From Patescibacteria group bacterium (GTDB taxonomy: Bacteria; Patescibacteriota; Minisyncoccia; Minisyncoccales; UBA10102), in NCBI GenBank assembly GCA_022563395.1, contig JADFNM010000001.1, positions 178,830 through 242,829 on the forward strand: a stretch of 64,000 bases of DNA, given 5' to 3'. How positions within the stretch are numbered: position 1 is the stretch's first letter; each line of letters begins with the position of its first letter. Shown in pieces: positions 1,842 through 39,440 of this stretch. Below the pieces are notes generated by a model that was given only the letters and a program-made list of their open reading frames with translations, ran no database searches and was not told the origin of the DNA. The position numbers were made by a program, and so were the translations under genes.

Positions 1842-3503
1842 ATGCGAAATTGGAGACTTCTTCTCATTGTTTTTTTCTTCTTGGCTCTTGGATTTGGGCT
1901 TACAACCCGTCTTGCCATTCTGCAGATTGCAGACCACGGGTTCTATAGGGCCCTGGCACAAGGGCAACAGAGCTTACCTAGGATCGCGGTGGGGAACCGG
2001 GGAGACATCTTCTTTGTAGACAAGAAAGGGACTTTGTATACGGTAGCCACCACCAAAAAACAGCCTTTTGTGTTTGTCACTCCAGTTGAAGTAGAGCAAA
2101 AGGAAGAAACTGCGGCAATCTTGGCCGCCATCCTTGATGTTCAAAAGGATTTTGTTATAGAAAAGCTTTCCAAAGAGGAAAGTCTTTTTGAGGTAGTGAA
2201 AAAGCAACTCAGTTTAGAGGAAACGTATGAGCTCCAAAAACTGGTGCTACCTGGAGTATATATTCAGCAAGAAAGCATACGCTCATACCCGCATGGCGCT
2301 TTGGCGTCTCGCACCTTGGGGTTCGTAAACCAAGACTGGGAAGGCCAATATGCAATAGAGAAGTACTATGAGGAACATTTAAAAGGAAAAGAGGGTTTAG
2401 AAAGAACCGTACGCAATGTGGCAGGATACCTGCTCTCTGAGAACAAAGATACCTTGCAGCATGGAAAAGACCTCGTGCTCACTATTGATTTTAACATTCA
2501 GTCAATGGCTGAATCCTTACTTCTCAAAGCAAAAGAACTCCATAACATTGAAGAGGGGACCATTATCGTAATAGATCCCATGGACGGTTCCATCTTAACT
2601 CTGGCAAACTATCCAAACTTTGACCCCAACACGTATTCTGAGGTTGCGGATTTTGGCGTGTTCCAGAATCCCGCTGTCCAAAAACTCTTTGAGCCAGGCT
2701 CCGTGTTCAAACCCATTACCATGGCTTCTGGCATTGATGCCGGCAAAATTACTCCTTCCACCACCTACCAAGACCAAGGAGTGGTGCGCATTGGAGGATA
2801 CAAAGTTTTAAACTATGACGAGCGAGTATGGGGAGAACGGACCATGACCGAGGTTCTGGAATACTCCATTAACACGGGGGCGGTATTTGCAGAAGCTGAA
2901 ACCGGGCACGCTACCTTTTTAGAATATCTTGAGAGGTTCGGCATATTTAAACCAACTAAAGTAGATATCGCAGGAGAGATCTACTCCGCAAACAAGGAAT
3001 TGAAAAAAGGATATGAGATTACCTACGCTACAGCTTCCTTTGGGCAGGGCATCGAAATGACCGCAATGCAACTCCTGCGGGCATACTCTGCCCTGGCCAA
3101 CGGCGGATATTTGCCGACCCCACATCTGCTAAAGCAGGATATGCCGTTGTCTGCACCTATTATTTCAGAAAGGACGGCCTCCCAGGTAACAGCCATGCTG
3201 GTGTCGGTGACGGAAAATGGATTCGCAAAGTCAGCGCGAGTTCCTGGCTACTACTTAGCCGGTAAAACCGGGACTGCTCAGATTTCGTACTCGGCCCTTG
3301 GGGTGGAAAAACCCGGCTACTCAGATGAAACCGTTCAATCTTTCATTGGATACGCACCGGCTTTTACGCCAAGGTTTTTGGCTTTAGTAACGCTCAAAAA
3401 CCCGCAAACCAAGACCGCAGAATATTCTGCAATCCCTTTGTTCCAAGAACTAGCAAAGTACATCCTGGACTATTACGAAGTTCCCCATGATTACGGGGAA
3501 TAG
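1842..3503 (+). CDS. ftsI: Penicillin-binding protein, transpeptidase (FtsI/PBP3-like)
   Basis: 553 aa with an N-terminal TM and the three PBP active-site motifs: SVFK (SxxK), SIN (SxN) and KTGTA (KTG). Confidence 0.85.
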   Translation: MRNWRLLLIVFFFLALGFGLTTRLAILQIADHGFYRALAQGQQSLPRIAVGNRGDIFFVDKKGTLYTVATTKKQPFVFVTPVEVEQKEETAAILAAILDVQKDFVIEKLSKEESLFEVVKKQLSLEETYELQKLVLPGVYIQQESIRSYPHGALASRTLGFVNQDWEGQYAIEKYYEEHLKGKEGLERTVRNVAGYLLSENKDTLQHGKDLVLTIDFNIQSMAESLLLKAKELHNIEEGTIIVIDPMDGSILTLANYPNFDPNTYSEVADFGVFQNPAVQKLFEPGSVFKPITMASGIDAGKITPSTTYQDQGVVRIGGYKVLNYDERVWGERTMTEVLEYSINTGAVFAEAETGHATFLEYLERFGIFKPTKVDIAGEIYSANKELKKGYEITYATASFGQGIEMTAMQLLRAYSALANGGYLPTPHLLKQDMPLSAPIISERTASQVTAMLVSVTENGFAKSARVPGYYLAGKTGTAQISYSALGVEKPGYSDETVQSFIGYAPAFTPRFLALVTLKNPQTKTAEYSAIPLFQELAKYILDYYEVPHDYGE

Positions 3504-3554
3504 CTCTCTGTAGAGTAGACTTAGCCTATTTCCTATGATATAAGAAAGAATCTT

Positions 3555-3627
3555 GGCCTTATCGTCTAGTGGCTCAGGACGCCGCCCTCTCACGGCGGTA
3601 ACACGGGTTCGACTCCCGTTAAGGCCA
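3555..3627 (+). tRNA. tRNA-Glu (anticodon CTC); CCA not encoded
   Basis: Acceptor pairing GGCCTTA/TAAGGCC, anticodon stem CCGCC/GGCGG with loop CTCTCAC, and T-loop GGTTCGACTCC. Overall it closely resembles bacterial tRNA-Glu. Confidence 0.8.
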
Positions 3628-3662
3628 CACTCGTGAATTTGTCAAACTTCCCGCCTCGCCGC

Positions 3663-3683
3663 TTTGCGGCTCGCCGCGTTCTT
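3663..3683. repeat. Left arm of a GC-rich inverted repeat (TTTGCGGCTCGCCGCGTTCTT) flanking the AT-rich ORF 3790-4302
   Basis: Its reverse complement recurs at 4333-4354. Each arm is also internally palindromic (GCCGC...GCGGC). Confidence 0.6.
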
Positions 3684-3789
3684 CAAAAACTGCCAAAGAA
3701 CCGGAAAAATATCGGCTCAAACCATATTTTGGTAAAAGAAAAATTTTTATATAATAAGGTCGAGATAATTATTAAGTTATATATAAATT

Positions 3790-4302
3790 ATGAATTTAAA
3801 ATACATTACATTTATTATAATTTTACTCACTCTTTTTGTTAGTTATGCGCTTTTTGGTTACCAGGTTGTAGAAGGACAAGAACTTCCCAATCCTTTTAAA
3901 GCACCACCGAAAGATATTGCGGGAGGAATATTTTCTTTGATTTTTAGCTTTGGTTTCGCGGTATTGCTTCCTATCTTGATCTTTTTCCTCATATCTTATT
4001 TCCTTATTTCATTAGGATTTAAGATTCTAAAAATTGAGGGGATAGCAAGATCTAAGATTGTAGTTTATATATTCGTAATGTTTCTAGTGGGTTCTTTCTT
4101 GCAGCCAGTAATTAGTAAATCTCTCGGAGGCGCTGTTAATGTATTCATTCTTTATTTGATAAATAGTCTTATTTCTTTTGGAATAACTTTCGCTCTCCTT
4201 AAATATTACTTTTCACTATCTGGGAAGAAACTTTGGCAATTCTTTCTGTATCTTGTCATCCTAGCTTTAATCTTTTTGGGATTAAGGGCGCTGTTGTTTT
4301 AA
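3790..4302 (+). CDS. Hypothetical polytopic membrane protein (very AT-rich)
   Basis: 170 aa made almost entirely of hydrophobic helices. GC content is far below its neighbours, and it is flanked by inverted repeats. Confidence 0.45.
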   Translation: MNLKYITFIIILLTLFVSYALFGYQVVEGQELPNPFKAPPKDIAGGIFSLIFSFGFAVLLPILIFFLISYFLISLGFKILKIEGIARSKIVVYIFVMFLVGSFLQPVISKSLGGAVNVFILYLINSLISFGITFALLKYYFSLSGKKLWQFFLYLVILALIFLGLRALLF

Positions 4303-4332
4303 CTTGCCGCCAAAGAAAAACTTGAAATTGTC

Positions 4333-4354
4333 AAAGAACGCGGCGAGCCGCAAA
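4333..4354. repeat. Right arm of the inverted repeat (AAAGAACGCGGCGAGCCGCAAA)
   Basis: Reverse complement of 3663-3683. Followed by two tandem GC hairpins at 4440-4500. Confidence 0.6.
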
Positions 4355-4593
4355 TCACGGGGGCTTCTTCTCGCCGCCGTAGGCGGAGAAAAATGTTCGA
4401 GCTAATTTAAGAATAGCCCACATCTCGCAATTTCGCCTGGTTCGCCCCGTCATTCGACGGGGCGCCCCGTGTTTATCACGGGGCGACTCCCCTTGGGGCC
4501 ACCATTGATTGACATCTTTTTTACCCCGTGTACCATAGATAAAACACAGGTGTTTTATGTCTTTGTTGAGCACTTTTTTCCAGGAGGGAGGGT

Positions 4594-4788
4594 ATGGCAA
4601 CCAGCCAGAAGGTTTCCGTCACCAAAACTCCTCCCCCCACTGAGGAGGGATGTAACCATCACTGGGACATTGATACACCAAGTGGTGGTTCAACAAGCTT
4701 GGGACGATGTCGCTTCTGCCGCGAGATCAGGGAATTTCGCAATGCGATGCCGCAATTCGACAAGCGGGGTGAGCGCGAGTACAACTAA
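4594..4788 (+). CDS. Small Cys/His-rich hypothetical protein (possible zinc ribbon)
   Basis: 64 aa with CNHHW...CRFC. It is preceded by a TTGACA -35-like hexamer about 17 nt upstream of ACCATA, and by a GGAGGGAGGG ribosome-binding site. Confidence 0.35.
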   Translation: MATSQKVSVTKTPPPTEEGCNHHWDIDTPSGGSTSLGRCRFCREIREFRNAMPQFDKRGEREYN

Positions 4789-4881
4789 TCCCTCGACCGC
4801 CCCCAACGGTTGATGCAGTACCCCAGGAGCTATACGTACGATGCGTATGGCTCTTTTTCATTTCAGTTCCCATGCGTTTTC

Positions 4882-4889
4882 TGTATAAT
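4882..4889 (+). promoter_or_regulatory. Extended -10 element TGTATAAT only 7 nt upstream of the ATPase ATG, suggesting a leaderless transcript
   Basis: TGTATAAT at 4882-4889 with the ATG at 4896. No Shine-Dalgarno sequence. Confidence 0.35.
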
Positions 4890-4895
4890 ACAAGA

Positions 4896-7493
4896 ATGCA
4901 AACTATTACTGCGTGGCACAGTATTACAACAAAAGAAGCGCTGAGAATTCTCAACTCGAATGCGGAGCTTGGGTTAAAAGAAAAAGAGGTTGAATTGCGA
5001 AAGAGTGAATACGGATTAAATACCCTTCCTGAAGACAAACCATTGTCTCCTCTGGTTCTTTTTTTACGTCAGTTTAAGAGCCCCCTCATCTTTATTCTGG
5101 TAATAGCAGGGAGCGTCACCTTCTGGCTTCAAGAATATACCGACAGCATCGTAATTTTCAGCGCCGTGCTCCTCAACACCGCCATTGGATACTTTCAAGA
5201 AAATAAGGCGAGCAAGGCACTTTTTGAGTTAAAAAAGATTCTCCAACAAAAAGCCTTGGTCGTGCGAGAGGGGACAGAAAGAGAGATACTTCAAGAAGAC
5301 CTGGTGCCGGGAGACCTTATAGTGCTCACGGAGGGAAACAAGGTTCCCGCGGACTGTCGAATCCTAGAATCCTTTGAACTGCGCATTAATGAGGCAGTGC
5401 TTACCGGAGAGTGGCTCGCTTCAGAGAAAAAGCCAATGGTTCTTGAAAGAAAAACTCCCTTAGCTGACCGAGACAACATGGCATACATGGGCAGCGTGGT
5501 GGCAGCAGGAAAGGGAAAAGCCCTTGTTATCGCCACAGCTCAGAGAACAGAGCTTGGTAGGATTTCAAAACTCATATCTGAAGTTAAAGAAGAAAAGACT
5601 CCCTACCAAAAGAAACTTCAGCGCTTCTCTTGGATTATTGGGACTATCATTGCTTTTCTTACCGTGTTCATCTTTGTAGAAGGGGTGGCAACCGGTGGAG
5701 ACATTGTTGAAATGTTCACCATTGCAGTGGCCATTGCGGTGGCTGCCATCCCAGAAGGCCTGCCTGTTGCAATGACCGTGGTACTGGCAGTTGGCATGCA
5801 GCGAATCTTGGCAAAAAAAGGTCTGGTGCGCCATTTAACTTCTGCCGAAACCCTTGGAAGTACCTCAATTATTGTAACCGACAAAACCCTTACCTTAACA
5901 GAAGGCAGAATGAAGGTAGAAGAGGTTGTACCCTTGAAAGCAGGGAACCGAGAAGAGGTCTTGCGAGCCGCTGCCCTTGCCAACGAGGCATTTATTGAAA
6001 ATCCAAAGGCCGCATTGGAAAAGCCAGTGTTAAGGGGCAGACCCACAGACAAGGCCCTGCTCCAAGCTGCCATGGAAGCTGGCATCTCACGACAAAAGAT
6101 TGAAGAGCACGCACCTTGCTTGTTTCGCATTCCCTTTAACTCAAATGAAAAGTACTTGGCCTCCTTTCACAAAGACAAAGAGGCAGTAAAGCTGTATGTC
6201 TCGGGAGCACCAGAAAGAATCATGGAACTCTCCAAGCTTTCTGAAGGAGAAGTCCATCAGGCAGAAAAAAGATTGCAAGAACTCACTTCCCAAGGTCTTA
6301 GAGTGGTTGCGCTTGCCAAAAAAGACATTCTGAATCATCAAGGACCAATGGTAAAAAAAGAGATGCTAAGAAAAGAAATTGTGGGGCTTGAATTTCTCGG
6401 TTTCATTGCCTTAAAAGACCCTATTCGCAAAGGAGTAAAAGAGGCGATAAAACTTGCAAAAGACGCAGGACTCAAAACCATCATTGCAACAGGAGACCAT
6501 CTCTTAACTGCAAAGGCAGTGGCAATGGAACTTAAGATACCCGCAAACGAAGAAAATCTTATGGAGGGAAAAGAGTTGGATGGTTTAACCGACAATGAAC
6601 TTGATTCAAGGCTGGGACACATTTTTGTCTTTGCAAGGGTAGAACCCAAGCACAAGCTCCGTATCATTGAGGCATGGCAAAGAAGGGGTCAAGTTGTTGC
6701 AATGACGGGAGACGGGGTGAACGACGCCCCAGCCCTAAAAAAGGCAGACATTGGTTTGGCCCTGGGCTCTGGAACAGATGTTGCAAAAGAGGCCTCTGAC
6801 TTAATCTTGCTGGCCGACAACTTTGCCATTATTCCAGCTGCCATCAAAGAGGGCAGAGTTATTATAGACAACATCAGAAAGGTCATCACGTACCTCGTAT
6901 CGGGATCCTTCACAGAAACCATATTAATAGGAACCAGTTTGTTGCTGGGGCTCCCGTTGCCTTTGACGGCCCTGCAGATTCTCTGGATCAATCTTGTAGA
7001 AGACGGATTGCCTGGCATGGCTTTGACCTTAGAAAAACCAGAAGGGGATGTTATGGCAAGACCCCCTTTAAAAAAGAACTCTTCCCTGCTTACGCAGGAA
7101 ATGAAGGTCATTATCTTTGGCATTAGCATTATTACCGACGTTCTCTTGTTTGGACTGTTCCTCTGGCTCTTGCAAACGCCCTACACCATACAACACATCC
7201 AAACGGTCATCTTTGTAGGGTTGGGGATTGACTCTTTGTTCTACGTCTTCTCGGTTAGAAGTTTGAGGAGAAACATCTGGCAGTACAACCCCTTTTCCAA
7301 TCTCTGGGTCACGGGAGCTGTGTTCTTGGGCCTTTTGCTGCTGGTATCTGCAGTCTATCTTCCTTTGCTTCAGTTCTTTTTGGGCACGGTAGCCTTAACA
7401 TTGTTTGATTGGACCCTGCTTATTTCGCTTGGGCTCCTCAATGTTCTCCTCATTGAAGCTGTGAAGTGGTACTATATCAGAAAAATGAAGTGA
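4896..7493 (+). CDS. P-type cation-transporting ATPase, P2-type (Ca2+/Mg2+-like); ORF also opens at 4872
   Basis: PEGLP and TGDGVNDAPALKKADIGLA motifs and about 10 TM segments. The phosphorylation motif reads DKTLTLT instead of the canonical DKTGTLT. Confidence 0.85.
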   Translation: MQTITAWHSITTKEALRILNSNAELGLKEKEVELRKSEYGLNTLPEDKPLSPLVLFLRQFKSPLIFILVIAGSVTFWLQEYTDSIVIFSAVLLNTAIGYFQENKASKALFELKKILQQKALVVREGTEREILQEDLVPGDLIVLTEGNKVPADCRILESFELRINEAVLTGEWLASEKKPMVLERKTPLADRDNMAYMGSVVAAGKGKALVIATAQRTELGRISKLISEVKEEKTPYQKKLQRFSWIIGTIIAFLTVFIFVEGVATGGDIVEMFTIAVAIAVAAIPEGLPVAMTVVLAVGMQRILAKKGLVRHLTSAETLGSTSIIVTDKTLTLTEGRMKVEEVVPLKAGNREEVLRAAALANEAFIENPKAALEKPVLRGRPTDKALLQAAMEAGISRQKIEEHAPCLFRIPFNSNEKYLASFHKDKEAVKLYVSGAPERIMELSKLSEGEVHQAEKRLQELTSQGLRVVALAKKDILNHQGPMVKKEMLRKEIVGLEFLGFIALKDPIRKGVKEAIKLAKDAGLKTIIATGDHLLTAKAVAMELKIPANEENLMEGKELDGLTDNELDSRLGHIFVFARVEPKHKLRIIEAWQRRGQVVAMTGDGVNDAPALKKADIGLALGSGTDVAKEASDLILLADNFAIIPAAIKEGRVIIDNIRKVITYLVSGSFTETILIGTSLLLGLPLPLTALQILWINLVEDGLPGMALTLEKPEGDVMARPPLKKNSSLLTQEMKVIIFGISIITDVLLFGLFLWLLQTPYTIQHIQTVIFVGLGIDSLFYVFSVRSLRRNIWQYNPFSNLWVTGAVFLGLLLLVSAVYLPLLQFFLGTVALTLFDWTLLISLGLLNVLLIEAVKWYYIRKMK

Positions 7494-16343: not shown

Positions 16344-16598
16344 ATGAAATATATAGTTTACATCCTTCAAAGTCTGTCAGCTAAAAAAAGTTATGTCGGA
16401 GTAACGGATAACATAGAACGCCGCATCAAAGAGCATAACAGCGGAAAACATTTCTATACGAAAAGGCATACTCCGTGGAAAGTAATTCATACAGAAGAGT
16501 ATTCAAACTTTCAAGAAGCACAGAGGCAGGAAAAGTACTTAAAAACCACATCAGGCAGAAGAATCATGAAGAAAATCTTTGACTCAATCAAAACATAA
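16344..16598 (+). CDS. GIY-YIG nuclease domain protein
   Basis: 84 aa with YIVYILQS...YVGVTDNIERRIKEHN. Directly upstream of tRNA-Gln. Confidence 0.7.
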   Translation: MKYIVYILQSLSAKKSYVGVTDNIERRIKEHNSGKHFYTKRHTPWKVIHTEEYSNFQEAQRQEKYLKTTSGRRIMKKIFDSIKT

Positions 16599-16603
16599 TC
16601 ATT

Positions 16604-16677
16604 GCGGGATCGTCTAACGGTAGGACATGGCCCTTTGGAGGCCAGTATCTAGGTTCGAATCCTAGTCCCGCAGCCAA
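16604..16677 (+). tRNA. tRNA-Gln (anticodon TTG), CCA encoded
   Basis: U1-A72 acceptor pair, anticodon loop CTTTGGA, T-loop GGTTCGAATCC, discriminator G, and CCA. Confidence 0.75.
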
Positions 16678-16787
16678 CGTGTACGAACAGAGTCAAGAAC
16701 TTTCTTGCTCTTATAATTAATAACAAGATACGGGGTATTGAAATGGACTTTTCCCTAGTCTAATGGTATAATAACTTACATAAGATT

Positions 16788-17024
16788 ATGCTGGAAAAAG
16801 AATTAAAATATTTTATTGATAATCAAAAAGAACTCGTAGCTAAATACGAGGGAAGATTTTTAGTGATTAGGGACCAAAAAGTTCAAGGTGTTTATAACAC
16901 AGAAATAGAAGCATACAACGAAGCTAAAAATAAGTTTGAACTAGGAACCTTTTTGATACAGAGAGCTCTTTCTGGTAAAGAAGGCTACACCCAGACTTTT
17001 CATTCTCGTGTAAGCTTTCCTTAG
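16788..17024 (+). CDS. Hypothetical 78-aa protein, translationally coupled to the retropepsin-like gene
   Basis: Its stop is 2 nt before the start of the next ORF. No recognisable motif. Confidence 0.45.
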   Translation: MLEKELKYFIDNQKELVAKYEGRFLVIRDQKVQGVYNTEIEAYNEAKNKFELGTFLIQRALSGKEGYTQTFHSRVSFP

Positions 17025-17026
17025 CC

Positions 17027-17590
17027 ATGCAAGATGCCTTTACTACAAGATATAAAGGACTGACACAAGTATTACACACACAAATAGGTGTGTGTTTGCC
17101 TTATACCAAAGAAGAAATAGAAATTAACAAAATTCAACTCAAAGAATATCTTGCAATCTGGGACACAGGAGCAACTCATTCAGCTATAACCAAGAAAGTT
17201 GCAGATGAGCTTGGATTAAAACCAACAGGTCTGGTTGATGTAAGACATGCTAAGGGATTGTCTAAAACCAATACTTACTATGTTAATATTGAGCTACCAA
17301 GCCATCTAATGATTGGCAATGTACGCGTAACAGAGGTTGAACTTATTCCAGACGCTAATACTTCAGATGACCAGCAACCACAAATTTTGATTGGTATGGA
17401 TATCATTGGTTTAGGTGATTTTGCAGTAACTAACTATAAAGGAAATACTATTCTTACATTTCGCACCCCCTCTATTGAAGAGATAGATTTTGTACCAGAG
17501 GCAAAGGAAGACAATATCATGGAAGGTGGAAATAGCCACGCACGTAAAGTTCAAAGAGCTAAAAAACGTAGAAGAGATAAGAAGAGATAA
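17027..17590 (+). CDS. Retropepsin-like aspartic peptidase (clan AA) with a basic C-terminal tail
   Basis: DTGA active-site motif (AIWDTGATHSAIT), an ILIGMDIIGLG flap-like region, and a KRRRDKKR tail. Confidence 0.6.
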   Translation: MQDAFTTRYKGLTQVLHTQIGVCLPYTKEEIEINKIQLKEYLAIWDTGATHSAITKKVADELGLKPTGLVDVRHAKGLSKTNTYYVNIELPSHLMIGNVRVTEVELIPDANTSDDQQPQILIGMDIIGLGDFAVTNYKGNTILTFRTPSIEEIDFVPEAKEDNIMEGGNSHARKVQRAKKRRRDKKR

Positions 17591-17635
17591 ATTCTTTACT
17601 TTCTAATAAACTTGTACTGTAAAAACAATCAAAGA

Positions 17636-17668
17636 ATCGCCAAATAGGCGGTTTTTTGGTAAGGTAGA
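17636..17668 (+). promoter_or_regulatory. Conserved hairpin-T6-GGTARRRT promoter module (ATCGCCAAATAGGCGGTTTTTTGGTAAGGTAGAGT), 4 nt before the ATG
   Basis: One of at least 9 copies of CGCCnnnnnnGGCGGTTTTTTGGTAGAAT located 5-20 nt upstream of start codons. Confidence 0.6.
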
Positions 17669-17671
17669 GTT

Positions 17672-17860
17672 ATGAGGGGCATTTACAGCATAACAAAGGG
17701 ACAATTGATTACACTATGGTTTTTTGGAACTATTGGTTGGCTTTTCGCTGGTCTCGTTTTGCTTAATGAAATTATCAGTGCCCTCCTGTATATTTTTTTG
17801 ATTCCGTTTATTCTTATTTTCTATACTATTGGTTGGAGAAATAGTAAAAAGAAAAAATAG
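17672..17860 (+). CDS. Small membrane protein (62 aa, 2 TM)
   Basis: Hydrophobic 62-aa ORF immediately downstream of the promoter module. Confidence 0.45.
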   Translation: MRGIYSITKGQLITLWFFGTIGWLFAGLVLLNEIISALLYIFLIPFILIFYTIGWRNSKKKK

Positions 17861-17900
17861 TGAATAGCAGAGTAGGGGAGAAATAATCTATTATCTACCT

Positions 17901-18494
17901 ATGAAGAGGAAAACTAAAAAAAGTACAGAGCTTACTACTAAGGAAGATTTGGGTAGCGACGAGGGATACTTGGAAAGTGAAGCGGTAGTAAAGCCTCCAG
18001 AAAAAGATAGTTTATTAAAGAGAATCCTATCGAGATTAGGCATGGGCGCCTTAGTCGTTGGTGGTGGCGCACTCTTTAGTGTAATTACTATTTTACAATT
18101 TTTAGTTACTGCTATCATTGGTTTAGGAATGATATGGTGGGCAGTAGTCTTATTTTTAGACGGCTCCATTATTTTGGGCCTATTGGTTCTTTTAATCGGG
18201 ACCCCAATAGCTATTGGATTAACCCACTTTTTCTTTTTCTTCTTCCTGGCGATAGGAATCCTTGCAACGATAATATGGGGAGTTGCTAACCTATTTGGTG
18301 TCGGTCTTTCTTTTGGTAATGCCTGGGATATTATTTGGCTGGTTATTGAGGTAGTGCTGCTTGGGGGTATGGCTTTTCTGGGAGTAAGTGGATTGATTGA
18401 AGCGATAAAAGAAAAGAGGGTAGCAGAGTTTTTTAAAGGAAATTGGTTCTATCTTTTACTCTTTGCATTTCTTTTTTGGTTATTTTTTCTCTAA
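17901..18494 (+). CDS. Hypothetical polytopic membrane protein
   Basis: 197 aa with a charged N-terminus followed by about 5 TM helices. Confidence 0.45.
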   Translation: MKRKTKKSTELTTKEDLGSDEGYLESEAVVKPPEKDSLLKRILSRLGMGALVVGGGALFSVITILQFLVTAIIGLGMIWWAVVLFLDGSIILGLLVLLIGTPIAIGLTHFFFFFFLAIGILATIIWGVANLFGVGLSFGNAWDIIWLVIEVVLLGGMAFLGVSGLIEAIKEKRVAEFFKGNWFYLLLFAFLFWLFFL

Positions 18495-18518
18495 GAGAAA
18501 CCAGTAAAACATCATAGT

Positions 18519-18830
18519 ATGGTCAAAAAAATCTATAGAGCAAATAATAGAGATGGCATTCTTATTGTGTTTGAGGATGGAAAACAAGTCGGTTTAACTG
18601 ATATAATGCGTGGTGTCCTACAGAACACATTCCGTACCCAGTTGGAGAATATAAAAATGCACCCTATCCCTCAGGAAGAAGGGGCATTAGAGACGAGACC
18701 TGATGAAGTAACAGAGGTTATACAAAAAGAAACTGGCTATTATTTAGAGGTTTCGGGAGATAAAGGGGATTATGATATTTCCGTTTCTCCTGAGGAGCTT
18801 AAAACTCTAATTTTTCTTGATGATAAATAA
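18519..18830 (+). CDS. Hypothetical protein (103 aa)
   Basis: ORF with plausible coding composition. Paired with the next ORF across a 2-nt gap. Confidence 0.35.
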   Translation: MVKKIYRANNRDGILIVFEDGKQVGLTDIMRGVLQNTFRTQLENIKMHPIPQEEGALETRPDEVTEVIQKETGYYLEVSGDKGDYDISVSPEELKTLIFLDDK

Positions 18831-18832
18831 AT

Positions 18833-19060
18833 ATGTATCTTGATATTGTTCTCGGTTTTTATAATCGTGCTGATGGTGGCTATGCACCGTGGTTTATGAT
18901 TTTTGAGCGTGATGGAGGTAATACCAGGGAGATTCCATTTGATTGCAAAGAGACTGCTCAATCAGAAAAAGAAGCAATACGCATTGCAAAAGCACACGCA
19001 CTAAAGATACTGGAAGAAAGATACTCCTCATCCGTCCAAGTTCGCTTTAGAGAAAAGTAG
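18833..19060 (+). CDS. Hypothetical protein (75 aa)
   Basis: Immediately follows the previous ORF. Acidic small protein. Confidence 0.35.
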   Translation: MYLDIVLGFYNRADGGYAPWFMIFERDGGNTREIPFDCKETAQSEKEAIRIAKAHALKILEERYSSSVQVRFREK

Positions 19061-19112
19061 GGGATTATCGCACAAAACTATATGCAAAGGTGAACTTGCC
19101 ACCCAATAAAAG

Positions 19113-19130
19113 GGTTCTAACTTCGTCCAG
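19113..19130. repeat. GGTTCTAACTTCGTCCAG boundary motif (copy 1; about 34 bp near-identical to the copy at 19815)
   Basis: CAATAAAAGGGTTCTAACTTCGTCCAGTGCCCC at 19100-19135 versus the same sequence with one mismatch at 19802-19840. The two copies flank the P-loop kinase gene as direct repeats. Confidence 0.7.
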
Positions 19131-19218
19131 TGCCCCCGGCTGCTAATTTTAAGCTTAGATTCTAAGCACCCTATCGTGGAGTTAGAACTATGGGTGATTT
19201 TTTGATAAAGTGAACAAT

Positions 19219-19725
19219 ATGAAAAAGAAATTGAGATTCATCTTACTAAACGGGCCAATAGGTTCGGGTAAATCCACTACTGCCAATCTTCTGCAAAGCA
19301 AATTGAAAAGAACTGCTATATTGAGTGTGGAAGACATTAGACAACTTATTTCTGATTTCAAGCACAACAGAGAAGACCATCTCCTTACGTGGAAAATTAT
19401 CCATAGTATGTGTGATGAATATTTCAAAAATGGAATAAGTGTGTTGCTTGAACAGTCCTATTGTTCCAAAGATAATGTTAATCAATTTCTGCGTCTTGCA
19501 AAAAAGCACAAGTGCTCCATAGGTTTCTATCATCTTCAAGCACCAAGAAGTATTTTACTTGAAAGAATTAAGCAACGAAAGAAAGACCATAAGACTTCAA
19601 AAGCTAAAATAATAAGTAATATTAAAAAACACGAAGAAACGACCTACCCAGACGCTATTGTTATTGATACTTCTGAAATGAAACCGGTCGAAGTCGCTAA
19701 GCTTATTTTGAATGATTTAAAGTGA
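19219..19725 (+). CDS. P-loop NTPase/kinase (AAA_33/zeta-toxin-like nucleotide kinase fold); ORF also opens at GTG 19210
   Basis: Walker A LNGPIGSGKST and about 170 aa, kinase-sized. Flanked by direct repeats. Confidence 0.5.
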   Translation: MKKKLRFILLNGPIGSGKSTTANLLQSKLKRTAILSVEDIRQLISDFKHNREDHLLTWKIIHSMCDEYFKNGISVLLEQSYCSKDNVNQFLRLAKKHKCSIGFYHLQAPRSILLERIKQRKKDHKTSKAKIISNIKKHEETTYPDAIVIDTSEMKPVEVAKLILNDLK

Positions 19726-19814
19726 TTGGAGAAATAGTGTAACGTGGGGTGGGGTAATTTGTGTTAAGATGAGCTCAAACTATAGGCAAACCCTGACTTT
19801 CCTTGCAATAAAAG

Positions 19815-19832
19815 GGTTCTAACTTCGTCCAG
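19815..19832. repeat. GGTTCTAACTTCGTCCAG boundary motif (copy 2)
   Basis: Direct repeat of 19113-19130. Followed by the palindrome GCTTAAACGAGATTTAAGC at 19849-19867 and a promoter module. Confidence 0.7.
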
Positions 19833-19883
19833 TACCCCCTGCCATGATTGCTTAAACGAGATTTAAGCAATATGAGAAAAAGA

Positions 19884-19916
19884 ATCGCCATGCAGGCGGT
19901 TTTTTGATAGAGTAGG
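19884..19916 (+). promoter_or_regulatory. Hairpin-T6-promoter module (ATCGCCATGCAGGCGGTTTTTTGATAGAGT)
   Basis: Same module as at 17636. The ATG at 19920 follows 3 nt after GATT. Confidence 0.6.
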
Positions 19917-19919
19917 ATT

Positions 19920-20195
19920 ATGAAAAAGATTCATTTCTTCCTAGACGAATTCCACCACGGGGCTGTGAACCATGTGGTACATTTTACTGGCTTTACGCTC
20001 CTTGGATATGGATTAGGCATAGAGAACTGGTGGATTGTTATCCTCTCTCCTTTTGTCATGGAGATGGGTCATCTTTACAACTACTCTACGGGTAGAGACA
20101 GACACCATGCTATTCGCATCATTCCAATGCAGATAATAGCATGGCTCATCTTTGTAGGAATCGTATACTTACTTACAAGATTGTTTAGTTCATAG
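19920..20195 (+). CDS. Small membrane protein (91 aa)
   Basis: Hydrophobic helices, with His/Glu residues inside predicted helices. Confidence 0.4.
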   Translation: MKKIHFFLDEFHHGAVNHVVHFTGFTLLGYGLGIENWWIVILSPFVMEMGHLYNYSTGRDRHHAIRIIPMQIIAWLIFVGIVYLLTRLFSS

Positions 20196-20238
20196 AAGTT
20201 AAATTTGGAATATAAAACTCATCACTTAGCCTTATCCT

Positions 20239-20269
20239 GGTTCTAACGTCGTTCACGACACGCAGCTAG
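20239..20269. repeat. GGTTCTAACGTCGTTCACGACACGCAGCTAG boundary motif (left flank of the HExxH gene)
   Basis: A 31-bp near-identical direct repeat recurs at 21636-21666, on the other side of ORF 20315-21577. Confidence 0.7.
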
Positions 20270-20314
20270 TTTTAGAGGTTTGACGTGTTTGTGGATGCTT
20301 TGGTAAAATGAAAT

Positions 20315-21577: not shown

Positions 21578-21635
21578 ATTCAAGCTATATTAAGAAGTCG
21601 TATGACGAGAATGTGAGCTCCTCACATACCAAAAG

Positions 21636-21666
21636 GGTTCTAACTTCGTCCACGACACGCAGCTAG
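21636..21666. repeat. GGTTCTAACTTCGTCCACGACACGCAGCTAG boundary motif (right flank)
   Basis: Direct repeat of 20239-20269. Confidence 0.7.
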
Positions 21667-22810: not shown

Positions 22811-22920
22811 GATTCTCTGCACCAGCATTCACGCAACGGGACATTCGTCTCTGAGAGACTCAGTCTCGATGAGTTCTAACATCGTCCAAGCCCCGCAGCA
22901 TACTAATACAAGAAGCCAAT

Positions 22921-39339: not shown

Positions 39340-39402
39340 GGGTTCATACCATGATAGGGCGGTGAGATGATATCAATACCCGCTTTTCTTTTACACAAAA
39401 CA

Positions 39403-39420
39403 GGTTCTAACATCGTCCCA
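39403..39420. repeat. GGTTCTAACATCGTCCCA boundary motif copy
   Basis: Matches the consensus GGTTCTAAC[AT]TCGTCC. Followed by palindromic elements. Confidence 0.6.
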
Positions 39421-39440
39421 TAGGGAGAGCCATTGTTGCT

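Follow-up and report, generated by a model that had tools for sequence, protein, structure and literature searches.

A probable tRNA-associated islet with a single membrane-protein gene in a Patescibacteria genome

Is the AT-rich gene that follows a tRNA-Glu gene in this genome of an uncultured Patescibacteria bacterium a piece of inserted DNA and, if so, where does the insertion end? The gene is an open reading frame (ORF) for a 170-aa membrane protein; it lies near the start of a 64,000-nucleotide (nt) stretch of contig JADFNM010000001.1, hereafter the window. The original prediction described it as the cargo of a small non-autonomous insertion with two inverted repeats as its ends. The reading favoured here, with a probability of about 0.6, is a non-autonomous islet, scarred by attachment (att) sites, at a tRNA-Glu integration hotspot downstream of a penicillin-binding protein (PBP) gene in a Wildermuthbacteria-like clade of Patescibacteria. 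An insertion with membrane-protein cargo is supported by relatives which do not have the ORF; its boundaries appear to differ from those proposed, the right one being a relic of an older tRNA and not an inverted repeat arm.

The features described originally (inverted repeat, GC hairpins, short direct repeats and an AT-rich ORF by tRNA-Glu) are all present, at or within 1 nt of the positions given for them, and are not due to chance. The inverted repeat pairs perfectly over 21 nt; a 22nd base (4333) is unpaired. The short direct repeats are real but are parts of longer ones, TGAAWTTGTCAAA (3634-3646 and 4323-4335) and GCCAAAGAA (3692-3700 and 4309-4317). The second copy of the former, TGAAATTGTCAAA, starts within the 3' end of the cassette.

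The inserted DNA and the displaced tRNA-Glu

The locus is composed of the following features (window positions):

1842-3503, PBP gene, ftsI-like, upstream of tRNA-Glu
3555-3628, + strand, tRNA-Glu(CTC), predicted xenologous replacement of the clade's resident tRNA-Glu (ARAGORN; Rfam tRNA, 63.9 bits)
3629-3662, + strand, left junction segment directly after the tRNA, with direct-repeat copy TGAATTTGTCAAA (3634-3646) and the 5' half of a small GC hairpin
3663-3683, + strand, left arm of the 21-nt inverted repeat
3684-3789, + strand, conserved 5' non-coding region of the cassette; aligns with L007, L015 and partly L006
3790-4302, + strand, 170-aa ORF of an orphan family, five predicted helices
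4303-4333, + strand, conserved 3' non-coding end of the cassette (GCCGCCAAAGAAAAACTTGAAATTGTCA); common to L007, L015 and partly L006
4334-4354, - strand, right arm of the 21-nt inverted repeat
4402-4418, + strand, relic of the ancestral tRNA-Glu 3' trailer (CTAATTTAAGAATAGCC; local alignment to the L019 trailer)
4444-4484, + strand, pair of tandem GC hairpins, the second of which reaches into the ancestral tRNA relic with its 3' arm
4444-4463, hairpin 1, GCCCCGTC-ATTC-GACGGGGC
4464-4484, hairpin 2, GCCCCGTG-TTTAT-CACGGGGC
4475-4502, + strand, relic of the ancestral tRNA-Glu 3' end (ATCACGGGGCGACTCCCCTTGGGGCCAC; local alignment), right boundary of the inserted DNA
4594-4788, + strand, native flank: 64-aa Cys-rich ORF (CxHHW...CxxC, Zn-ribbon-like), conserved upstream of the P-type ATPase in relatives
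4872-7493, P-type ATPase, downstream of the Cys-rich ORF

Among named organisms, the PBP has its closest relatives in Candidatus Wildermuthbacteria; the exact PBP protein is also present on a contig of up to 671 kb. The PBP/tRNA-Glu site was compared with four relatives: L016, L018 and L019 (PBP 78-81% identical) and L020 (PBP 75% identical); L numbers denote comparison loci. The PBP gene and a tRNA-Glu are kept in 4/4, and the 170-aa ORF is absent from the tRNA-Glu locus of all four. The small Cys-rich ORF is also found in L016, L018 and L020 (tblastn E 1.5e-7, 1.3e-6 and 2e-8, respectively) and the P-type ATPase is seen at the locus in L018 and L020; the L019 contig stops short of this region. 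Between tRNA-Glu and the Cys-rich ORF, L016, L018 and L020 have a minus-strand gene whose product is 55-67% identical among the three and has no homologue anywhere in the window; L016 has a 324-aa ORF in addition. The three genes are:

L016, 7566-8123, minus strand, conserved 160-190-aa protein, hydrophobic helix at its N terminus
L018, 7173-7745, minus strand, the same protein
L020, 6957-7445, minus strand, the same protein

A comparison of the tRNA-Glu site among relatives, as originally proposed, thus yields sites without the ORF and with other content. Since the content of the interval differs and the ORF is missing there, the interval between tRNA-Glu and the Cys-rich ORF is, on this comparison, a variable hotspot, with the 170-aa ORF apparently specific to this strain within the clade. 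The Cys-rich ORF itself is not part of the insertion. The same strain is found in four further metagenome assemblies (samples with the strain: ERZ24945681, ERZ23499034, ERZ27267519 and ERZ27267515); a single nucleotide polymorphism is the only difference across 3401-4900, and all five contain the insertion in identical orientation.

The compositional contrast noted originally holds. The GC content of the ORF is 0.322, compared with 0.444 +/- 0.027 for 36 long ORFs of the window (z = -4.6), and the lowest-GC 500-nt stretch of the 64 kb contains it. GC at third codon positions (GC3) is 0.29 vs 0.44 for window ORFs; GC at second positions (GC2) is also low. In codon usage, a comparison which the original prediction had proposed, the ORF is more distant than all 36 controls. 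Two other polytopic membrane proteins nearby have a GC content of 0.46-0.47; hydrophobicity alone is therefore insufficient to explain the composition of the ORF. A foreign origin of the ORF at this locus is supported by its absence from relatives that share the gene order, its deviant composition and the presence of homologues in unrelated contexts.

The boundaries of the inserted DNA are revealed by the tRNA. Its 3' end, CGACTCCCGTTAAGGCCAC (3610-3628), recurs as CGACTCCCCTTGGGGCCAC (4484-4502) with 16/19 matches; this direct repeat, located with a repeat finder, is absent from the original prediction. In L016, L018 and L019, the PBP gene is directly followed by an intact tRNA-Glu(CTC) of other sequence, GGCCCCATCG...CAGGGGTTCGACTCCCCTTGGGGCCAC (GGCCCCA... 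type), and 4484-4502 is identical to its 3' end at 19/19 positions. If one small indel is allowed, the match spans 4475-4502, with a local alignment score of 42 compared with at most 14 elsewhere in the flanks. A 17-nt piece at 4402-4418 matches the L019 trailer CTGATTTAAAGAATAGCC with a score reached by 0/300 shuffles; just before it, at 4392-4400, a T-loop-like GTTCGAGCT can be seen by eye.

The tRNA-Glu now in place differs from that of L016, L018 and L019 along its whole length and in every stem, with changes in the acceptor, anticodon and T stems that are always compensated; it is therefore, judging by its stems, a different gene rather than a mutated copy of the ancestral one. These alignments show that the resident ancestral tRNA-Glu has been displaced and that only its last 28 nt (4475-4502) and the trailer piece (4402-4418) survive. 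Upstream of the relics lie a complete tRNA-Glu(CTC) of another sequence and an AT-rich single-gene cassette of ~0.7 kb, whose non-coding flanks are found in near-identical form behind other tRNAs in other genomes. The present tRNA-Glu probably arrived with the cassette or before it. The 5' half of the old tRNA-Glu was not found upstream of the new one by local alignment of the flanks; an ARAGORN search allowing intron-containing tRNAs gave nothing further, and only two tRNAs reach the Rfam threshold. A 36-nt core of the new tRNA-Glu has five exact matches in viral contigs, all in ordinary tRNA-Glu(CTC) genes of high-GC bacteria with other acceptor stems; what these matches show is just that the anticodon arm is of the canonical bacterial type.

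L020 contains a third tRNA-Glu variant, located between fragments of the same ancestral tRNA (GGCCCCATCG, TCTAGTGGCCTA ... CCCCTTGGGACCAC). Its junctions carry long CCCCGTACC..GGTACGGGG hairpins, which are related to the tandem GC hairpins of the window. By parsimony, the GGCCCCA-type tRNA-Glu is likely to be ancestral for the clade and to have been replaced twice independently, once in this genome.

Two side observations concern interrupted tRNAs. Firstly, in the L020 region where the third variant lies between the fragments (6700-6905), one ancestral tRNA-Glu fragment is itself split by a hairpin with a perfect 16-bp stem, CCCCGTACCATCCGCC-TAC-GGCGGATGGTACGGGG, the arms of which resemble the two hairpins of the window. 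Secondly, a complete tRNA separates the 5' half of an older tRNA from its 3' half in L008 (2219-2437, and the same in L012; tRNA-Val) and in L011 (1-175, minus strand; tRNA-Thr). The older halves refold to a valid cloverleaf once joined by a 7-nt loop, and the old anticodon stem is extended by a 7-9 bp inverted repeat flanking the insert. We know of no bacterial precedent for a tRNA nested between the halves of an older one.

Recurrence of the gene at other tRNAs

Twelve independent loci of the family were recovered, counting L008 and L012 together; scans of genome and metagenome contigs supplied five loci, four of them new and one a duplicate. In 5/12, a tRNA gene or tRNA 3' end is located 130-270 nt upstream on the same strand:

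Window, tRNA-Glu
L007, tRNA-Ala
L006, tRNA-Val
L008/L012, tRNA-Val (Saccharibacteria)
L015, tRNA 3' end at the contig edge, isotype not identified

With a baseline of ~2 tRNAs per 60 genes in the window, the binomial probability of this is about 3e-5; consequently, the tRNA adjacency stressed in the original prediction is meaningful. The tRNA-Glu is not the passive neighbour it was taken for; it appears to be part of the incoming DNA.

Homologues at L007, L006 and L015 are 71-75% identical, and the L015 cassette is 75% identical. In MAFFT alignments, non-coding homology between the window and L007 begins at the first base after the tRNA, despite the different tRNAs; segment 3629-3662 is homologous to the sequence directly after tRNA-Ala in L007 and, by eye, resembles the sequence after the middle tRNA-Val 3' fragment in L006. 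In L006, two additional copies of the last 12-15 nt of tRNA-Val flank the family gene. Repeats resembling tRNA 3' ends flank or follow the gene in three further loci: direct repeats (64-70 nt, 91% identity) surround it in L005 and L028, and the same unit comes after it in L013. In a MAFFT alignment, this unit corresponds to the tRNA-Gln 3' end, apart from 5 nt inserted in the T-loop. L028 has six copies within 4.7 kb downstream of a tRNA-Gln and L005 has at least four. The foreignness of the cassette, its scars and its recurrence at tRNAs are established by these comparisons. Two unrelated contigs, L006 (3654-3672) and L014 (about 1375-1395), also share a 19-nt palindrome, CTGCCTGCCGGCAGRCAGG; in each it has the same position within the tRNA-3'-like unit that lies downstream of the family gene.

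The protein belongs to an orphan family. A structure predicted with AlphaFold2 from 19 sequences (mean confidence score, pLDDT, 77) has an N-terminal hydrophobic helix and four more helices. The ORF has no significant match in Pfam (the best, Bestrophin_2 at E 0.16, is far below the cut-off), nothing in PHROGs, NCBIfam or PADLOC, no sequence match in PDB and no Foldseek match to PDB at E <= 0.001. A profile search of 1.84 billion cluster representatives places the family in 56 clusters, none of which matches a known family. Members were seen only on Patescibacteria-type contigs; there is no match in viral contigs, phage records or plasmid records, and the 3' end of the cassette also has no match in viral contigs. 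Conservation is found in the ~115 C-terminal residues (LLKYYFxLSGKKLWQFxLYL); N-termini are variable. In some members (among P0010, P0014 and P0016-P0023), an N-terminal FtsH_ext-like (PF06480) transmembrane/periplasmic domain is fused to the conserved C-terminal membrane module, which hints at a tie to FtsH complexes. The product is predicted to be a small integral membrane accessory protein.

The inverted repeat and the origin of the insertion

The arms at 3663-3683 and 4334-4354 are 21 nt long, 100% complementary and 650 nt apart. A search for other copies, as originally proposed, found none in the window at up to 3 mismatches (0 expected by chance), and the arm core GCGGCTCGCCGC is confined to these two places. 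The CCCCGT..ACGGGG motif of the hairpins also occurs at a single place in the window. As neither the repeat nor the hairpin motif is found elsewhere in the 64 kb, a generic terminator or a repetitive extragenic palindromic (REP)-like repeat was rejected. The hairpins fold with a z-score of -4.1 relative to shuffles; no T run follows them. Five matches to an 18-mer of the arm in viral contigs were rejected as chance, because all lie in high-GC (0.54-0.68) DNA with dissimilar flanks.

The arms were originally taken to be the ends of the insertion, and this was not supported. The left arm, of which 15/21 positions are conserved in L007 (hand count on the alignment), sits in sequence shared with L007 that begins right at the tRNA end, and the right boundary (the tRNA relic at 4475-4502) is ~120 nt past the right arm. 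No target-site duplication is found beside the arms (flanks ...CCTCGCCGC before the left and TCACGGGGG after the right). The arms occupy the exact outer edges of the core shared with L015 (3684-4333), and L015 has the same cassette without them. Since they lie inside the foreign DNA, are not accompanied by a target-site duplication and are missing in L015, the arms appear to be internal rather than terminal.

The arms are not meaningless, as the homologous gene is bracketed by inverted repeats in other lineages too. In the Saccharibacteria contigs L008/L012 the repeat is 32 nt long and 97% identical (L008 2552-3423); in L027 (2594-4023) it is ~150 nt and ~90% identical, and the whole is enclosed by a 139-nt direct repeat (96%). 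Through the L027 direct repeat, the upstream gene's end and a promoter-like site are present twice. Arm sequences of the window, L008/L012 and L027 are mutually unrelated. By eye, each arm has a small internal dyad (GCGG-CTCG-CCGC here, AATAG-GTTCGA-CTATT in L008), and there is a likeness between the L008 arm and the tRNA-like unit found behind the family gene at other loci. The right arm scores terminator-like when read on the minus strand. The arms could act as recombination sites in inverse orientation or as outside-in terminators, or they could pair as a 5'-3' RNA stem within a tRNA-mRNA co-transcript.

Four other explanations of the locus were weighed. A native, vertically inherited gene, AT-rich only through a membrane protein rich in Phe, Ile, Leu and Lys and surrounded by ordinary terminators, would fit the low GC2 expected of a hydrophobic protein and the ~28-32% GC of family members in every host, including hosts of ~30% GC. 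This is highly improbable: it is already contradicted by the comparison with relatives, which do not have the gene, and by the ancestral tRNA relic downstream of it; GC3 is low too, neighbouring polytopic proteins have ordinary GC, and the repeats are unique within the window. The original model, a MITE-like (miniature inverted-repeat transposable element) or insertion sequence-derived transposon with a captured membrane gene, the arms as terminal inverted repeats and transposase acting in trans, draws on a perfect 21-nt repeat for which chance is excluded, and on the long inverted repeats around the homologues in L008/L012 and L027. It is unlikely given the lack of a target-site duplication and of a second arm copy in 64 kb, the unrelated arms of homologous cassettes, the armless L015 cassette, and a left arm within L007-shared sequence and inside boundaries set by tRNA relics. 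With no target-site duplication, no other arm copies in the 64 kb and arms that appear to lie inside the insert, the element does not seem to be a MITE.

The remaining two explanations concern the arms. The arms may be inversely oriented sites for a host recombinase (Xer-like or an invertase), between which the gene could be inverted or swapped, as is proposed for pdif modules or for invertons. Unrelated inverted repeats at similar distances around a homologous gene in three lineages, the dyad symmetry within each arm and the resemblance of the L008 arm to the tRNA-like unit would be accounted for; this reading is unlikely, though, as five independent assemblies of the strain show one orientation and essentially identical sequence, no recombinase is found in the window, the dyad spacer is 2-4 nt here vs 6-8 nt in dif-type sites, and most family loci have direct repeats or no long repeats. 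Alternatively, the function may be at the RNA level: the gene would be co-transcribed with tRNA-Glu, the arms would pair as a 21-bp stem round the ORF (a processing site or stabiliser), and the GC hairpins would be terminators or 3' protection. Arms conserved in position and not in sequence in three lineages are what selection for pairing alone would give; the + strand from the tRNA to the ORF yielded no sigma-70-like promoter, and promoter-like sequences were seen by eye upstream of the left arm in both L008 and L027. This too is doubtful, as arms are missing in most family loci, local folds of the flanks other than the GC hairpins are not unusually stable, and the hairpins have no T run.

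The islet explanation is consistent with a position directly 3' of a tRNA, a distal repeat of the tRNA 3' end, and absence from the site in relatives. According to it, the foreign DNA would span 3555-4474 (~0.9 kb) and would have recombined into the resident tRNA-Glu at its T-loop/3' end. The recombinase would have been supplied in trans, by a helper element or a host enzyme, since tblastn with XerD, lambda Int and Hin found no tyrosine or serine recombinase in 64 kb; for the same reason, the inserted DNA is supported as non-autonomous, in agreement with the original prediction. At least two successive events would have produced tandem att-like scars, relic A (4392-4418) and relic B (4475-4502), with only two hairpins between. 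A complete tRNA-Glu would have been present on the incoming DNA, or else the crossover was followed by a deletion; the incoming tRNA-Glu would keep the cell supplied after loss of the resident copy. A complete tRNA arriving with an insert is a pattern also found in L020, L008 and L011. We infer the site-specific recombination, the helper, and the number and order of events.

Several points weigh against this explanation. Neither an integrase nor an excised circle or empty-site read was seen, and the recombination mechanism is deduced from the scars alone. A crossover within a tRNA predicts a chimera (old 5', new 3'); here the whole tRNA is new and there is no old 5' fragment upstream, so that one has to postulate an extra deletion or a tRNA-carrying element. 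A minimum of two events is required, given that the trailer relic is upstream of the tRNA-end one. In the window, the tRNA-Gln-like unit also occurs scattered through intergenic DNA, far from any tRNA, and may be a repeat family or RNA motif instead of an integration scar. The conspicuous inverted repeats are left unexplained. Finally, transformed DNA could have led to a similar arrangement by homology-facilitated illegitimate recombination.

A more general explanation is possible, though of low probability. Patescibacteria may share a pool of integrase-less single-gene cassettes which move between the 3' ends of different tRNAs (Glu, Val, Ala, Gln) via tRNA-derived attachment sites, sometimes bringing a complete replacement tRNA nested in or beside the resident wreck. 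This would be integron-like shuffling on tRNA T-loop/3'-end sites with a putative recombinase in trans, and the inverted repeats would represent copies of the site in inverse orientation. CPR (Candidate Phyla Radiation)/Patescibacteria have very small genomes in which few mobile elements are described, and their exchange of accessory genes is poorly known. The locus is a clean, datable example: the ancestral stump is present, three relatives retain the intact ancestral tRNA and one has an independent replacement; gene gain and tRNA turnover can therefore be traced stepwise. If one recombination system underlies the recurrence by different tRNAs, it would be a compact route for single-gene transfer. 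Otherwise, the islet is degenerate but ordinary, and its membrane protein simply adds another orphan to the accessory genes.

Overall, the locus behaves like a degenerate, cis-mobilisable islet at a tRNA hotspot. Insertion at a tRNA is itself of an ordinary kind; the tiny size, the replacement of a whole tRNA, the near-identical cassette flanks at different tRNAs and the recurrent bracketing by inverted repeats are unusual. tRNA-targeting integrative elements were reportedly classified by Williams in 2002. Cis-mobilisable elements (CIMEs), known from the Streptococcus thermophilus literature, are att-flanked derivatives of integrative elements without a recombinase. The locus resembles them in its att-like flanks, its lack of recombination and transfer genes and a presumed need for a helper in order to be mobilised; unlike it, CIMEs are several kb long and demonstrably derived from integrative and conjugative elements with matching att sites, and there is no known parent or helper here. 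The pdif modules of Acinetobacter plasmids and invertons are small gene modules between inversely oriented short sites. The cassette is likewise a small module between inverted short sites without its own recombinase; in contrast to them, it has no 11-6-11 dif architecture, is chromosomal and tRNA-linked, and has no orientation variants among five assemblies.

In the tycheposon model, partial tRNAs are att scars, elements occur in tandem and degenerate remnants lie beside tRNAs (bioRxiv 10.1101/2020.12.28.424599). As in such tRNA-proximal additive islands, the locus is directly 3' of a tRNA, has distal partial tRNA scars in tandem and varies in content among close relatives; degenerate cargo-only remnants of such islands are without integrase, as is this locus. 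Unlike them, it is <1 kb with one ORF and no integrase or other hallmark gene, the whole tRNA gene and not only its 3' end is replaced, and there is an internal 21-nt inverted repeat. A tycheposon integrase is specific for a single tRNA, whereas closely related cassettes are found here at different tRNAs (Glu, Ala, Val). As it has no integrase, the locus is not in the integrase-bearing element families. Sugahara et al. 2012 (PMC3293823) describe an archaeal tRNA-Thr gene disrupted by a mobile element with its own tRNA copy. Both cases feature a displaced fragment of the resident tRNA and, beside the inserted DNA, another version of that tRNA; the case described there is archaeal, with a 1.8-kb recombinase-encoding insert, a displaced 5' fragment and introns, whereas this one is bacterial, with no recombinase and a displaced 3' end.

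Small single-ORF units, and the same-strand arrays of L028 and L005 with a conserved ~60-100-nt repeat between units, are reminiscent of integron cassettes. There are differences: no IntI was found, the repeat aligns to the tRNA-Gln 3' end, and most copies do not have paired R''/R' boxes. By eye, no RYYYAAC/GTTRRRY pair flanks the ORF. With no attC beside the ORF and no tyrosine recombinase found in the 64 kb, the element is not an integron cassette. One tRNA-Gln-like unit of the window, 19113-19190, has GGTTCTAAC...GTTAGAAC; the attC reading was dropped because other copies are without the second box.

Surroundings and other repeats in the window

The gene order in the window is mraZ, rsmH, ftsL-like, PBP, tRNA-Glu(CTC), 170-aa ORF, Cys-rich ORF, ATPase, Na/Ca exchanger and RmuC. 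The Cys-rich ORF has no Pfam match; it has a strong Shine-Dalgarno sequence and a promoter-like site, TTGACA-16-TACCAT, at 4509-4536.

A second AT-rich block (16677-20300, GC 0.33-0.34) directly follows tRNA-Gln(TTG) (16603-16676); a GIY-YIG ORF (16344-16598) lies just upstream of this tRNA. The block contains small same-strand ORFs for DUF5678, a retropepsin-like Asp protease, an AAA_33/zeta-toxin-like kinase and several small membrane proteins. Some of these are separated by a ~45-nt repeat and by a recurring terminator, AAAGAATCGCCANNNAGGCGGTTTTTTG. The block looks like another tRNA-anchored accessory island.

The ~45-nt repeat, AAAACAGGTTCTAAC.TCGTCCA.GACCCGCAGC, is dispersed in intergenic regions and aligns (MAFFT) to the tRNA-Gln 3' end with a 5-nt T-loop insertion; it is the same unit as that found in L028 (6 copies) and L005 (at least 4). 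Its copies in the window are:

19103-19146, + strand
19804-19847, + strand
20230-20271, + strand
21628-21665, + strand
22873-22902, + strand
39393-39422, + strand
31313-31346, + strand, weaker copy
32351-32377, + strand, weaker copy

The repeat has no match in Rfam, and the tRNA-Gln-like unit (model R1) has no copy near 3555-4500. Its copies could be att scars, a tRNA-derived repeat family or an RNA motif of 3' untranslated regions. Further modular intergenic repeats, GCTTAAACGAGATTTAAGCAATAT and GGTTCCTAAATTTCATTTAGGAGATATGCG-like hairpins, are located at about 19850 and 39440 and at about 22950, 31420 and 39470 of the window, which suggests that the intergenic regions of this genome are a mosaic of repeat modules.

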